NCBI GenBank assembly: GCA_034530615.2
Contig: JAVRCV020000068.1
Span: 79,393 to 143,392, forward strand
Length of the DNA: 64,000 nt
Reading direction: 5' to 3'
Origin: Aulosira sp. ZfuVER01
GTDB lineage: Bacteria > Cyanobacteriota > Cyanobacteriia > Cyanobacteriales > Nostocaceae
A program made the translations under genes and the position numbers. Below the pieces are notes generated by a model, which ran no database searches, was not told the origin of the DNA, and worked only from the letters and a program-made list of their open reading frames with translations. Each line of letters begins with the position of its first letter. The stretch's first letter is position 1. Shown one piece after another: positions 2,952 through 23,692 of the stretch.

Positions 2952-5167
2952 ATGAATAATCTTAACATAATCTTGCAATTAATTTCCCTTTTTTGGCCTT
3001 CGATATTTCTTTTAATTTTGATTATAGCTTTTACTATATATCCTTTTTATCATATAAGAACGAAAAAGATAGATTCTTATATTAGGGATATAAGAAAATT
3101 TACATTAGCTTTTATTAATAACACTATTGAATTAGCAACAATTATTATAGTTATTATTTTGTCGATAAGGCTATTGTTTAGCATATTCAATAATGAGTTT
3201 TTTTTAGATATAGTTAGAATTATAAAAAAAGACGAAATAAGTGTATTATTTAACTATATTGTAAATCTTTTACAGGTTATATGCATTATATTTTTACTGG
3301 GAACTATAGTTTTATTTTTAAGGTGGTTATCTAGTAAAGCCAAAGGTACAGTAATTCTTCCATTTGAGGATACAACAAACGAAAAATTTGGAAAAAAAGT
3401 CGGACAAGCAATTAGTGATTCTCTATCCTCCGAACTCCACCGAATTTGGCAAATTTATGTAAGTTATTCAGATATTCTTGAGCGTGAAGAAGAGTTTATA
3501 AGGCTTGAAACACAAAACCTGTTCTATCCTTCTCCAATAAGTTCTAATCAAGAACAACTTATAAATCAATTAGTTAATGTTGGAACTTTAGAGTATGGTA
3601 AGACAAAATTTTCTATAGGTGCGTTACTTTTAATATTAAAATATTTATGGCCTTTCGGTGGAGTAGAACGCTTAATTACAGGAAGTATACAAGCATTGGG
3701 TTCAAAGATTCGTTTAGTAGTTAAATTAGAATCTGGTAATGAAATAAAAATATGGGAAGTAACCCACGAAAATGTAGAGAATGGGTTATTCCCTGAAATA
3801 ATAAGAGAGCTTGCTTACAAACTTAGCCAATTTTTAATATCTAATAATCAACAAAGCTCATGGAAAGCATTTAAAAATTATACTGAAGCTATTTCTAAGT
3901 TTAATGAATATCGGACAAATAAAGACTTTTATAAATTAACGCAACAGTTTGCCGAACTAAATGAATTGTGTATAAATAACTCTTTGAAACAACTTGAAGA
4001 ATCATTAGGATATTGTTTGCAAGCTATAAATCATGACGTTTATAATCCGGATATTTCAGTTTTTATGTATTATCTTGGAGCTTCTTATATTGAAGTAGGA
4101 AAGCTTGATATTGCAAAAAAATTATTCACTTATGCTATGAAAATTGATAAAATATATATTTCTACATTGGTCTTGCAAATGTATACTTAAAACAAGAAAA
4201 ATATAATTATGCTAGCGAGTATTATGAATACGTTAAGGGGAAAGATGATAAATTACCTTATTCCTATAACGGGCTTGGAATTATATATGCCATAAAGGGA
4301 GAGTATATTAAAGCGCTTGATTATTATAATGAAGCTATAAAGCGAAAGGAAAATTTTTGGAAACCTTATCATAATAGAGCCATCCTATTATTATATCATT
4401 TTTCACACAATAATAAAGCTAGAATGATTGCAAGAATAGATATTGGGCAAGCCAAATCACATTCAAGATATAAAAATGCAGCACCTTATTCTGCACTAGG
4501 TTTAATAAATTTTCATGATGCAATTGAAAATAAATTTTCAAATAATGAAGGACAAATTGAATTAACAGAAGAAGGAAAAAAATTATTAACAGCGGCACGA
4601 TTAGAAATACAACAGGCTATAAATATTGAATATGAACCTTCTTATTATCCTGAATATTATTGGAATTTGGGCTTAATATTACTTTGGCAATGCAACTTAG
4701 AAGAAACTTATAATGCTTGGCAAAAGGCTTTCAGTTTTGCATTAAAATATAAAGAGAATGAAATTTGTAAAACTGTTTATGAATATGCTTTAAATATTTT
4801 AAATAATAAAAATACGACAGAGTCATCTAATACTTTTAATTATAAAGAATATTTGAGCAAAATTCAGACTCGTCTAAATGAAGCAGGACAATCATCTAAA
4901 ACCGGACGTATTGAAATGATGCTAGACGATCTTTACACAATTCAAGAAGCCGCAAATATTTGGAATAAAAAGCAATTATTGAACTTGGAAGAATTGGGAA
5001 AGATTATTGAAGTTTTTAAGGATAAAATTGGTAAGCATACAAAACCTCAAAATAATAACGAAGATAAATCTAAGGAGAATGATAGCAAGGTAGATAAGCT
5101 TTTAGATAAACTGTATTCAAGCTATTCTCATAAGGGGATGACAAATCAGATACAGCACACAAAATAG
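2952..5167 (+). pseudogene. Membrane-anchored TPR protein split by a frameshift near 4150-4161
   Basis: ORF 2952-4190 has N-terminal TM helices. The frame of ORF 4424-5167 is open back to about 4157 and reads as TPR repeats (YIGLANVYLKQEKY..YNGLGIIYAIKGEY). AT-rich. Confidence 0.7.
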
Positions 5168-16216: not shown

Positions 16217-16855
16217 TTACAAATATAAGGATTGAACAGCCAGATCCTTTAAGGTAATGGTAAAGTTACGCTGCTCTTGTGTAGCAATGAATGCGATAGT
16301 TGCCTCACACGCCACAGCAACAGTTAACATCACCAAATTTCGCGCTAGAGGATAATCACAGACATCATCATTGACATCAGAAGGAACGCGATAAACATCA
16401 TTCCAAATTACTTCTGCATAATCGGCTGCTAGTCCAACATGAAGGCAGGGAATTTTTGAACGATCGGCATAATCTTTCACTGCTTGACGTGACAAGCTGT
16501 TGTCAAAAACATCAATAATTAACTGGCTATCTTGAAGTAGTTGATCTGCATTTGCTGATGTCAACTCCTTTGTTTTGGCATCAACTTTAGTACCAATTGC
16601 TCGGTATAAATTATTTGCTAGGATTTTCGCCTTAATTGCTCCAACATCGGAACGGTAGTAAGGCTGGGTAGAAAGGTTACGTTCCTCAATGCGATCGCGA
16701 TCGATTACCGTAAGTTTATCAAAACCAGACCGAGCCAAGTTTTCTGCAATGTTAGCTCCTAACGCTCCAGCCCCACAAATGGTTATAGGATAATTCTTGA
16801 GCTTTGCCATCACAGCATTGCTGCGGTAAAGCTGTTCGTGAAAAAAAATACTCAT
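16217..16855 (-). CDS. ThiF/E1-like adenylyltransferase
   Basis: GAGALG, DRDRIEERNLSTQ, KAK, DVFDN motifs. Start placed at MSIFF, 5 nt after the upstream stop. Confidence 0.9.
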   Translation of the reverse strand: MSIFFHEQLYRSNAVMAKLKNYPITICGAGALGANIAENLARSGFDKLTVIDRDRIEERNLSTQPYYRSDVGAIKAKILANNLYRAIGTKVDAKTKELTSANADQLLQDSQLIIDVFDNSLSRQAVKDYADRSKIPCLHVGLAADYAEVIWNDVYRVPSDVNDDVCDYPLARNLVMLTVAVACEATIAFIATQEQRNFTITLKDLAVQSLYL

Positions 16856-16860
16856 TGTCC

Positions 16861-17694
16861 TTACCACTCTTGTTGTTCCATCACAGCCACTAAAGATTGC
16901 AAATCAAAATCGCGATCGCGTCCACTCAAGCAAATCCCAGAACTAATTACAGTCAAATCAGATTTAGCGATCGCACTAGTGTGGCGAACACCATCAGCCG
17001 TTCTCCAATCCACTGTCCAGTAATCACCGCGATCGTGAAATTGGCGTAATTCACCGCCACCCATTCGCAATGCTTTTCTTAGCCGTTTTTCATCCTGTTG
17101 CGGTTGTGCAAATCCCTCAATCCGCTGAGTTGCTAATTCATACAATGTCCGGATTTCTGGAGTAATCCCTTTGAACTGTAATTCCTCAGCAGGAGTCAGT
17201 TGCTTAACAGCAGATTGCAGAGTTTCCACAATTGCTGGATCGGTACGGCGATCGATTTCCTCAAACCAGCAGGATTGTCCATTCCAACGAGCGATAACTT
17301 GCTCAAAAACAACACCCTCAGTTACTAGATGTACTGCGATCGGTTTGACTACCTTCAACCGTTGACGCATATCTACTTCATTCACAGGATATGCTAACCA
17401 AGTTTGTCCTCGCAGTTGGTGTGCTAATCTCAGCCGTATTTGGGGAAAGTGTTGCAAGTATTCTGCAATTTGGGGTAAGTCTGCTTCTTCCACAACTGTT
17501 GCTGTCTTCGTATCGACTGGCTGAAAGATACCCCAACCTTCAAATTGATTATGCTTTGGCGTAAAGGTGTAAACCATCCCAGCTACTCGTGTGCGAACTC
17601 GTCCACCTTTGACACAAGGGGCGATAAATTGAGTTGCACACAACTGTGCTTCTGCACTAGCAATTTGGTTGATTAGCTTACGGATGTCAGTCAT
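16861..17694 (-). CDS. Hypothetical protein, C-terminal SGICLSG (possible E2-like Cys)
   Basis: 277-aa ORF tightly coupled to the ThiF gene; family not recognised. Confidence 0.75.
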   Translation of the reverse strand: MTDIRKLINQIASAEAQLCATQFIAPCVKGGRVRTRVAGMVYTFTPKHNQFEGWGIFQPVDTKTATVVEEADLPQIAEYLQHFPQIRLRLAHQLRGQTWLAYPVNEVDMRQRLKVVKPIAVHLVTEGVVFEQVIARWNGQSCWFEEIDRRTDPAIVETLQSAVKQLTPAEELQFKGITPEIRTLYELATQRIEGFAQPQQDEKRLRKALRMGGGELRQFHDRGDYWTVDWRTADGVRHTSAIAKSDLTVISSGICLSGRDRDFDLQSLVAVMEQQEW

Positions 17695-17765: not shown

Positions 17766-17975
17766 TCCCGCGTGCAAGTTGGTGGAGCATTGCGTGTTCT
17801 CAGTTACTAGGGGGACTCCGCTGGTGAGTTGTTACACACTCTTTCAAAGATGGCTACTTTTAAGCCCATTTTCCAGGTTCTTCGCACTCCCCGTTCACAC
17901 ACGCCCACTGTATTTGACAGTGTTACTTTTCCTCTCGTACTAGTATGTAGGCTCCAAGAGTTAGGGCACGCAGGA
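17766..17975 (-). ncRNA. Scaffold RNA A: carries sarcin-ricin-loop mimic and 23S H42-44 mimic
   Basis: Terminal stem UCCUGCGUGC/GCACGCGGGA; CCUAAC/AACUU loop; CUAGUACGAGAGGA at 17943-17930; 56-nt GTPase-centre-like segment at 17876-17821. Confidence 0.85.
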
Positions 17976-19610: not shown

Positions 19611-21185
<1,575 letters not shown>

Positions 21186-21301: not shown

Positions 21302-21702
<401 letters not shown>

Positions 21703-21731: not shown

Positions 21732-21861
<130 letters not shown>

Positions 21862-22716: not shown

Positions 22717-22860
22717 AATTCCGCACAAGTTAGCAAAGCAGTTTTCACAATTGCCTTTACCATTTTGGCTACGCTCCCATATAAGGGAGCGACAGGAATC
22801 GAACCTGCATATCCTTTCACAGATAGTGTGTGTATGCTTCACAAGTTAGGGCGCGGAATT
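22717..22860 (-). ncRNA. Scaffold RNA D: circularly permuted tRNA cargo (YrlA-like topology)
   Basis: Order is T arm GCAGG-UUCGAUU-CCUGU, loop-closed acceptor CGCUCCC-UUAUAU-GGGAGCG, UA, D arm GCCAAAAUGGUAAAGGC. Confidence 0.85.
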
Positions 22861-22876
22861 AAATCTTAAATGTTTA

Positions 22877-23055
22877 CCATGCAAGTTCAAGAAGCTTTTT
22901 ACAACTACGGTCGCTCTTACCAAATATTGGCAGTGGGCACGCACGCTAAATCTGCAAGAGACTTAGAAATCATGCTTCGCTGGTTCGATCGCTCGAATTT
23001 TACTACCTTAGGGCCGTTATCAATGTGTATGTATGCTTCTTGTGTTAGGGCACGG
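22877..23055 (-). ncRNA. Scaffold RNA E: permuted 23S rRNA H67-H71 (H69) mimic cargo
   Basis: AUAACGGCCCUAAGGUAGUAAAAUUC at 23020-22995 and GGUAAGAGCGACCGUAGUUGUAA near the 3' side, inside the scaffold arms. Confidence 0.8.
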
Positions 23056-23068
23056 ATGATTAGGCGTA

Positions 23069-23284
<216 letters not shown>

Positions 23285-23339: not shown

Positions 23340-23548
23340 TGGATCTGATCGGGATTGAACCGATACCCTCCCTGTGAGAGTTGCACTCACACCTCATGCG
23401 AGTTGAAAAAGCTGTGGTAACACACGCAGGAATCGCACCTGCACTTATCGTTTAAAAAGCGATCGCTCTACTATTGAGCAAGTATGTAAGCTTCTTCTGT
23501 TAGGGCACAAGTGAAATCCGGGATCTCTACCGTTAGAGCTACAGACCC
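23340..23548 (-). ncRNA. tRNA-like shell with its anticodon loop replaced by scaffold RNA F
   Basis: Acceptor GGGUCUG/CAGAUCC-A, D arm GCUC-UAACGGUA-GAGA, T arm AUCGG-UUCAAUC-CCGAU. Confidence 0.75.
23393..23511 (-). ncRNA. Scaffold RNA F: tRNA-Lys(UUU)-like cloverleaf cargo
   Basis: CUUGUGC/GCAUGAG stem, CCUAAC/AACUC; D arm GCUC-AAUAGUA-GAGC; anticodon loop UUUUUAA; T arm GCAGG-UGCGAUU-CCUGC; internal ACCA. Confidence 0.8.
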
Positions 23549-23611
23549 AAGTTTGCATGATTGCTCTGCTCTGATTGCAGTCATTGCAACTTCAATCAAA
23601 GTCAAAGCAAG

Positions 23612-23692
23612 TGGAGCCGTCGGGAATTGAACCCGACTCCTGCAACCGTCCGTTTGTTGGTTTCGGAGCAGTCGAACGCCAATCGCGGCCCC
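23612..23692 (-). ncRNA. Minimal tmRNA tRNA-like domain (no tag ORF)
   Basis: GGGGCCG..UGGCGUUCGAC 5' end; GGAGUCGGG-UUCAAUU-CCCGA-CGGCUCC-A 3' end; G3.U70; stemless D loop. Confidence 0.75.

Follow-up and report, generated by a model that had tools for sequence, protein, structure and literature searches.

Why should a piece of 23S ribosomal RNA (rRNA), cut, trimmed and put together in a changed order, be held on an RNA stem in a cyanobacterial genome? The question is raised by the window, i.e. the whole stretch of 64,000 nucleotides of Aulosira sp. ZfuVER01 (contig JAVRCV020000068.1) that was analysed here. The element in question, RNA E, is a unit of 179 nt on the minus strand, composed of a scaffold stem and a cargo; its limits in the initial annotation are exact to the base, from the first base of CCGUGC (23055) to the last base of GCAUGG (22877). 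In that annotation RNA E was described as a circularly permuted part of 23S domain IV, joined to the scaffold through the loop of helix 69. The presence of an rRNA-like, permuted cargo was confirmed in the present analysis. Moreover, we consider it reasonably probable that RNA E is a conserved, structured non-coding RNA of the Y-RNA type, in which an rRNA-mimic module replaces the module that mimics transfer RNA (tRNA), and that its stem is bound by a homolog of the protein Ro60 encoded at the same locus.

No 23S was found in the own assembly by the large-subunit rRNA (LSU) model. As reference we therefore took the 23S of a congeneric, complete genome (L005:530-3355), which matches the LSU model over its full length; a short conserved motif had served to locate 23S genes. 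In the cargo, the head (23020-22995) aligned with 23S 1842-1867 at 23 of 26 positions without gaps, with a Smith-Waterman score of 37 against 20.6 ± 2.1 (maximum 29) in 100 shuffles. When a head profile of 18 family members was searched against an 8-Mb genome plus the 23S (a 16-Mb search), the 23S site was the top non-self match at E 9.4e-6, and the score of the position-specific scoring matrix was 41.2. Thus the likeness of the head, which had first been noticed at the same 23 of 26 positions, is borne out by alignment, shuffles and family profile.

For the second half, plain tests failed. When the tail was aligned by gapped Smith-Waterman within domain IV alone, 148 of 1000 shuffles did as well, alignment to the whole 23S took an unrelated gapped path that was equalled by 64 of 300 shuffles, and the tail profile in nhmmer did not match the 23S at E ≤ 100. 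The similarity claimed for this half became significant once family profiles were used. In a position-weight scan with the family alignment, block 1 (GCGUGCCCACUGCC) had its best site in the entire 23S at 1757-1770 (GCCUGCCCAGUGCC; 12 of 14 identical), scoring 15.0 against -0.0 for the runner-up and equalled at none of 300,000 background positions, and block 2 (consensus GCGRCCGU) had its best site at 1830-1837, with 7 of 8 identities in the window and 8 of 8 in the family consensus where 0.009 are expected per 23S; the limits of the blocks were picked after viewing the alignment, so these figures are somewhat generous, with large margins.

The order of these parts is block 1, block 2 and head in the 23S, and head, block 1 and block 2 in RNA E. 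As the head is placed first, the copy is circularly permuted. The only stretch without direct counterpart is 23S 1838-1841, within the loop of helix 69, and about 52 nt of the 23S (1771-1822, most of helix 68) are represented by a stub hairpin of 13 nt. The pairs of RNA E coincide with those of the Rfam LSU structure of the relative's 23S, six of six in the stem of helix 69 and seven in the base of helix 68, including a G.U pair at the same place. Hence four claims of the initial annotation, namely the permutation, the join to the scaffold at the loop of helix 69, the reduction of helix 68 to a stub and the bridging hairpin that closes the end at helix 67, hold on the mapped blocks, which fall at the predicted 23S sites, together with covariation in 18 sequences. 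The same annotation had cited the intersubunit bridges and factor contacts of helices 69-71; the junction core is indeed copied, but the loop of helix 69 itself, which is the part making the bridge and factor contacts, is interrupted in the window's copy.

Structure was tested on an alignment of 18 sequences (alignment A1), with a structure of 49 pairs written from the 23S correspondence. Without guidance, RNAalifold returned 34 pairs, 16 of them with compensatory changes. Among these were the two helices of the scaffold, the analog of the helix 69 stem, a hairpin where helix 71 would be, and helix 68's base and stub. In the 49-pair structure, 91.2% of 873 cells were paired, compared with 27.0-37.6% when partners were slid by 1-3 columns, and changes on both sides were seen in 19 pairs, compared with 2-8 after sliding. 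None of 500 shuffles reached the observed values in four of the five measures; the fifth, further pair types, was not distinctive (199 of 500). A tally of the per-pair counts gave 77 G.U cells among 796 paired cells, which fits an RNA of the minus strand.

Within the module, the helix 69 analog (helix 3 of the model) has six pairs, three of them changed on both sides, and 92.6% of its cells are paired. The ACGG/CCGU pairing predicted at the outset is kept here, with compensatory changes at 57:167 (GC13/AU4/GU1), 58:166 (CG8/UA6/UG2, two unpaired) and 59:165 (CG12/UA3/UG3). The stub hairpin of helix 68 (helix 9) is paired in 100% of cells, and four of its seven pairs are changed on both sides. 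In the base of helix 68, pair 134:163 is CG14/UA4, i.e. C-G has been switched to U-A in four sequences, and the G.U at 140:158 is invariant, where the Rfam structure of the relative's 23S also has G.U. The hairpin at the place of helix 71 (helix 5) is likewise 100% paired, with two of five pairs changed on both sides. In the helix 67 analog (helix 6; five pairs, 90.2% paired) variation is one-sided and no pair is changed on both sides. The bridging hairpin is held in 13 of the 18 sequences, five distant ones being unalignable there, and 78.3% of its cells are paired. A further candidate, pair 70:88, the analog of the 23S pair closing the helix 71 region, was paired in 27.8% of cells and was dropped.

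The scaffold arms enclose the linker AUACAUACAC and the 130-nt cargo. Outer helix P1 (helix 1) has seven pairs, four of them changed on both sides, with 97.6% of cells paired, and inner helix P2 (helix 2; strands CAAGAAGC and GCUUCUUG) has eight pairs, three changed on both sides, with 90.3% paired, so that the two together comprise 15 pairs, seven of them changed on both sides, at 90-98% pairing. Over 75 units the 5′ strand follows the pattern G-Y-R-Y-C-C-Y-R-A-Y (e.g. GUGUCCUAAC, GCGCCCCGAU), opposite A-A-C-U-U-G. A fixed third helix, UACA/UGUA, was inconsistent among homologs and was omitted from the structure model; the UACAUAC of the linker is the 5′ acceptor strand in tRNA-bearing units.

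RNA E lies 1.8 kb upstream of a gene on the same strand whose true start is the ATG at 21041 and whose product is labelled in public sources merely 'vWA domain-containing' or 'hypothetical', with 3305 relatives at E ≤ 1e-5. Searched as a single sequence, the product matched a Ro60 from a Thermus phage along some 370 residues (E 1e-4); in the portion of PMC12135203 available, structures 9KOP and 9L5Y are of the Ro60 of Thermus phage phiLo. With a profile of 39 sequences, human and Xenopus Ro60, phage Ro60 and Deinococcus radiodurans Rsr were matched at E 6e-16 to 5e-7, and Pfam vWA_Ro60 matched 9 of the 39 family members. The AlphaFold model has a mean predicted local distance difference test (pLDDT) score of 89.9, and its top 12 fold matches were all Ro60 at full length, with template-modelling (TM) scores of 0.60-0.70. 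The residues of the MIDAS motif (metal ion-dependent adhesion site) are invariant in the family. Judged by profile and predicted fold, the 476-aa gene product is a Ro60 homolog.

With a Ro60 homolog as the partner gene, the scaffold is reframed as a Y-RNA-type stem. According to the portions of PMC4201824 available, genes for Y RNAs lie beside Ro60, with a criterion of 4 kb from a Ro60 ortholog; their paired ends form a stem with a bulged 5′ strand (GGUCCGA; in bacteria GNCGAAN0-1G) that is contacted by Ro60, and a module tethers Ro60 to other proteins; in bacteria, this module mimics a tRNA and is joined to the stem at a site other than its natural ends. RNA E is read as Y-RNA-type since its scaffold follows the same logic, its 5′-strand motif is related (the core YCC-R-A is common to both, and the published pattern itself is not matched), and a sister unit resembles the YrlA module, although sub-threshold (22753-22809 against positions 30-81 of Rfam YrlA, 23.1 bits at a threshold of 69).

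BLAST located RNA E in 18 of 121 genomes of the family, the own genome included, with 95-70% identity in the other 17, and two further families of this order (L046, L047) had complete units as well. In these two and in two distant members of the own family, the entire loop sequence of helix 69 is on the head side and adjoins the scaffold. Thus the break point is identical everywhere, and the permutation point that had been noted in the window is the same in its homologs. A motif search over 401 genomes of the phylum gave many chance matches, and 4 of 16 inspected loci were RNA E while 12 were not.

The Ro60 gene is present in 41 of the 121 family genomes and in all 12 related loci; in 17 of the 18 genomes that carry RNA E it lies no more than 4 kb away, on the contig and strand of RNA E. 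In the own genome, a regular-expression search found nine candidate units outside the array, one of them convincing (contig C32), so that six of the seven convincing scaffold units genome-wide are at the Ro60 locus. The orphan unit (C32:181019-181143, minus strand), far from this locus, holds a permuted tRNA-like cargo. All eight inspected Ro60 loci devoid of RNA E still have arrays of scaffold units. RNA E is thus an optional module. In one such genome (L076; G021:C64, oriented locus 3980-4049) the position syntenic to RNA E is taken by a scaffold unit with only a 25-nt filler, which looks like loss or exchange of the module.

In the mechanism that we propose, the stem of two helices with a conserved bulge, common to at least five other RNAs of the array, would be the binding site of the Ro60 homolog. 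It carries a permuted miniature of the junction core of 23S domain IV, made of an analog of helix 67, helix 68's base and stub, the stem of helix 69, the following conserved strand and the hairpin replacing helix 71, with the natural ends at helix 67 closed by a hairpin and the attachment at the place of the helix 69 loop. By imitating an rRNA surface, such a module may tether the Ro60 particle to a protein that recognises the 50S subunit, titrate this protein or bait it; the target could be a host factor that handles rRNA or a foreign enzyme that attacks ribosomes. The analysis shows the structure of the RNA, its permuted homology, its conservation, its linkage to the Ro60 gene and its presence in RNA libraries; binding by Ro60 and the role as decoy or tether are what we infer.

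RNA libraries contain the unit. Contigs from three studies of relatives cover it at 85-99% identity, a metatranscriptome contig of 197 nt spans 22880-23076 with five differences, and transcriptome contigs of 2.5-9.5 kb span the array; runs containing the unit had small shares (0.05-0.11). A scan for promoters and terminators gave no excess over shuffles (16 versus 18.9 and 9 versus 5.8 ± 2.3). Rfam 15 has no family for RNA E, and no Rfam family reached its threshold.

Several observations weigh against a Y-RNA-type RNA bound by Ro60. The library evidence consists of assembled contigs from relatives that give neither strand nor ends and may include DNA carry-over. Pfam TROVE matched none of the 39 members of the Ro60 homolog family at E ≤ 0.01, and the stem motif is similar, not identical, to the published Ro60 site. 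The Rfam YrlA model did not match RNA E at E ≤ 10, and a tRNA-like module is lacking from RNA E. Likewise, the LSU model (RF02541), with which RNA E is not colinear, gave no match at E ≤ 10, and the loop of helix 69, the best-known functional part of the region, is interrupted. In the window itself, one position of the helix 69 analog is an A.C mismatch, and the minimum free energy (MFE) fold of this copy omits the helix. RNA E occurs in only 17 of the 41 family genomes with a Ro60 gene, and a 66-aa protein encoded beside it, as universally linked as Ro60, could bind the stem instead.

It must also be asked whether the shared stem could merely be a processing cassette of the RNase III or RNase P type that frees the cargos, with the Ro60 gene being a neighbour that handles them in another way. 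The stem of about 20 bp is long enough for a double-strand RNase, and a mycobacterial YrlA is cut by RNase P in the account given by the available portions of PMC4201824. Moreover, ACAUAC is the 5′ acceptor strand in two tRNA units, one of which encodes ACCA after the acceptor stem; hence RNase P and 3′ processing could free the tRNA cargos. However, the loop sequences of the stem are conserved over 75 units, which is needless for a mere cleavage site in double-stranded RNA, and a unit that is 'empty' but for a 23-nt hairpin has been retained just upstream of the Ro60 gene. Neither RNA E nor the permuted tRNA-like unit offers an acceptor end for processing, and permutation is sensible only if attachment to the stem matters, which makes this explanation rather unlikely. 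A different account of the permutation is excision of the cargo and its ligation into a circle, by which the permutation would be undone and a helix 69-like loop re-formed at the junction. Both ends of the cargo are indeed loop-like (the tail runs on AGUUGUAA and the head begins AUUGAUAACGG; in distant homologs the whole loop is in the head), and the fact that two cargos are permuted fits a circle. On the other side, joining the ends would produce a loop that greatly exceeds the original 7 nt, and the tRNA cargos are unpermuted. None of 26 open reading frames (ORFs) scanned at 5.8-38.7 kb encodes a ligase or splicing endonuclease, and back-joined forms were absent from the RNA-library contigs examined, which are poor evidence for such forms. 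Thus we regard a circle as very unlikely.

Neither of two further explanations seems to us at all probable. Capture of a 23S fragment by chance in a DNA cassette or mobile inverted repeat, with the cargo as a decaying pseudogene, would agree with the variation of arrays among genomes in the cargos they hold, with the existence of empty units and with the 25-nt filler found in one genome at the syntenic place of RNA E. It is largely refuted by covariation: the cargo helices are kept through compensatory changes over at least 12 genera, and helix 68 has been swapped for a covarying stub instead of being eroded. The G.U pairs are strand-specific, which argues against a cassette at the DNA level, and no integrase or transposase is beside the array among the 26 ORFs scanned. 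Core sites of an integron attC, which lie in an imperfect inverted repeat with an integrase close by, must be complementary, and the loop strands CCUAAC and CAACUU are not. The other explanation, a cis-regulatory rRNA mimic in an mRNA leader, bound by the L7/L12 paralog or by a 239-aa protein, starts from the fact that rRNA-mimicking leaders are a known kind and that the array contains an extra L7/L12 gene; but the paralog is missing from 7 of 12 RNA E loci and the 239-aa gene from 4 of 12, and in distant arrays RNA E is followed by other units and not by an ORF.

Features of RNA E, of its array and of the neighbouring genes (positions in the window)
Feature	Position	Strand	Remarks
RNA E unit, scaffold stem and cargo, 179 nt	22877..23055	-	MFE -47.2 kcal/mol, z -2.49
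Scaffold outer helix P1, 5′ strand CCGUGC	23050..23055	-	partner 22877-22882
Scaffold internal loop/bulge, conserved 5′ side CCUAAC, candidate Ro60 contact	23044..23049	-	75-unit profile
Scaffold inner helix P2, 5′ strand	23035..23042	-	partner 22888-22895
Conserved linker AUACAUACAC and AUUG	23021..23034	-	UACAUAC common to all units
Head: last three loop bases and 3′ strand of helix 69, following conserved strand	22995..23020	-	23S 1842-1867
Helix 69 stem analog, 3′ strand ACGGCC	23012..23017	-	partner 22907-22912 (GACCGU)
GNRA-loop hairpin at helix 71 place, UUCGA-GCGA-UCGAA	22984..22997	-	helix 5
Helix 67 analog, strand GCAUG	22971..22975	-	partner 22941-22945 (CGUGC)
Bridging hairpin CUAAGUCU-CUUGC-AGAUUUAG, closes natural ends of rRNA piece	22946..22966	-	helix 7
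Block 1 GCGUGCCCACUGCC, helix 67 5′ strand and helix 68 base	22929..22942	-	23S 1757-1770
Stub hairpin replacing ~52 nt of helix 68 (23S 1771-1822)	22919..22931	-	helix 9
Block 2 GCGACCGU, helix 68 base 3′ strand and helix 69 5′ strand	22907..22914	-	23S 1830-1837
Scaffold inner helix P2, 3′ strand	22888..22895	-	partner 23035-23042
Scaffold internal loop, conserved 3′ side AACUU (of A-A-C-U-U-G)	22883..22887	-	73 units
Scaffold outer helix P1, 3′ strand GCAUGG	22877..22882	-	partner 23050-23055
Ro60 homolog, 476 aa, HEAT-repeat ring and vWA, intact MIDAS	19611..21041	-	proposed scaffold partner
66-aa protein	23069..23269	-	12/12 related loci; 298 homologs, a few named 'TGS domain-containing' by a source
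tRNA, anticodon UUU, in scaffold stem	23415-23488	-	
T-arm / closed-stem / D-arm RNA	~22725-22855	-	
tRNA, anticodon UAA, in scaffold stem	21760-21834	-	
'Empty' unit, 23-nt hairpin cargo	~21100-21175	-	
155-nt cargo starting with sarcin-ricin-loop sequence CUAGUACGAGAGGA	~17770-17970	-	
Second L7/L12 gene inside array	21302-21694	-	TIGR00855, 105 bits; in 5/12 related loci
E1-like (ThiF) gene overlapping 277-aa gene, downstream of sarcin-ricin unit	16217-17694	-	

In the window, five further cargos are placed between the same scaffold arms on the same strand. In the two tRNA cargos the body is kept among syntenic counterparts while the anticodon differs, and no columns vary more than those of the anticodon. 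One position has UUU, UGA, CUA (three times) and GCA, the other UAA (five times), UGA, GAU, UAG, GAA, UCG and UCC; such a pattern is more in keeping with baits or decoys under diversifying selection than with tRNAs that decode. The cargo of the unit at 22725-22855 is a permuted tRNA-like RNA with a GNRA hairpin, a T arm, a closed stem of 7 bp and a D arm. The 'empty' unit is directly upstream of the Ro60 gene's ribosome-binding site and is kept there in related loci, so placed that it is possibly an autoregulatory site. The 17770-17970 cargo, found in 7 of 13 loci scanned including the window, is a chimera of two distant 23S regions: besides its sarcin-ricin sequence, a 45-nt stretch matches the relative's 23S at 1082-1126 (36 of 45, score 45 against 21.5 ± 2.1), a region which we take to be the GTPase-associated centre. 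It would thereby fuse two distant rRNA pieces that adjoin on the ribosome, and an extra L7/L12 gene is close to it.

A miniature transfer-messenger RNA (tmRNA; 23609-23692, minus strand), located upstream of the array and without scaffold arms, has only the tRNA-like domain; 24 nt stand in for the model's 316-nt middle (Rfam tmRNA 43.8 bits, threshold 47). Among the neighbouring genes, the pair of the E1-like and 277-aa genes is present in 6 of 12 related loci, and the E1 part matches the PADLOC Cap2 'E1-E2' models; the 239-aa protein is encoded in 8 of 12 and found only unnamed clusters in an atlas look-up. The other L7/L12 copy of the genome is on contig C48. No PADLOC model exists for the L7/L12 paralog, the Ro60 homolog or the proteins of 66, 239 and 277 aa, and Pfam at E ≤ 5 gave nothing for three small or unknown proteins, the 66-aa protein among them.

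A tentative idea, to which we would give clearly less than even weight, is that the locus is a bait panel centred on Ro60, reproducing those sites of translation that are touched by toxins or factors, so that damage to a bait, or its binding, by an RNA-targeting enzyme of an invader or competitor would be sensed or absorbed. Its members would be the tRNA bodies with variable anticodons, the tRNA-like domain of tmRNA, the chimera of sarcin-ricin loop and 23S, the extra L7/L12 and RNA E. If this holds, RNA E would point to an enzyme as yet unknown by which the junction of helices 67-71 of the 50S subunit is attacked or recognised, and modules that are baits for RNA-damaging enzymes would constitute a new kind of surveillance system in multicellular cyanobacteria.

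Bacterial Y RNAs have so far been known as tRNA mimics. A permuted rRNA junction on a Y-RNA-type stem would indicate that the design of stem plus mimic is general and modular, and the array offers natural, swappable modules with which partners may be fished directly. Furthermore, an annotation is gained for more than 3000 sequences labelled only 'vWA domain-containing' or 'hypothetical'. In full-text literature on tRNA-mimicking Y RNAs and Ro60 structures, neither rRNA-like Y RNA modules nor such a cyanobacterial array were found, the supplements of PMC4201824 with their cyanobacterial YrlA candidates being outside this scope.

Among the closest known systems are bacterial Y RNAs, above all YrlA (RF02553), with Ro60/Rsr. 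Like RNA E, YrlA is encoded only a few kb from the gene of a Ro60 homolog and shares its strand, its paired ends form a long stem with a conserved, pyrimidine-rich bulged motif in the 5′ strand, and this stem bears a permuted mimic of a translation RNA whose natural ends are closed and which is joined elsewhere. The tRNA-like module of YrlA is closed at the acceptor end and attached via the anticodon side, the same design as in RNA E. In both cases several RNAs can share a locus, bacterial Y RNAs being processed from one precursor in the portions of PMC4201824 available. RNA E differs in that its module comes from 23S domain IV and not from a tRNA, and in its scaffold motif, G-Y-R-Y-C-C-Y-R-A-Y in place of GNCGAAN0-1G. 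The cyanobacterial arrays have 5 to 9 units, unlike YrlA loci, and their Ro60 homolog is, unlike the Ro60 linked to YrlA, so divergent that sources call it only 'vWA domain-containing'.

With domain IV of the host 23S (helices 67-71), RNA E has in common three sequence blocks and homologous pairs, including the G.U in the base of helix 68. Unlike domain IV, it is permuted, lacks about 52 nt of helix 68, has the loop of helix 69 opened and a shorter GNRA hairpin for helix 71, and is not seen by the Rfam LSU model. Leaders of ribosomal-protein operons are short RNAs that copy a local rRNA structure and are bound by the rRNA-binding factor. RNA E differs from such leaders, as it goes with no single downstream gene, has its stem in common with tRNA-like RNAs, and copies a junction of several helices and not one protein site. 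The closest solved relative by single-sequence search is the Ro60 of Thermus phage phiLo with Yrl1 and Yrl2 (PDB 9KOP, 9L5Y). The phiLo Yrl RNAs differ from RNA E in their CGAA bulge and have no rRNA-like module; as described in the available portion of PMC12135203, they are, like RNA E, located upstream of the Ro60 gene and built as stem, bulge and stem.

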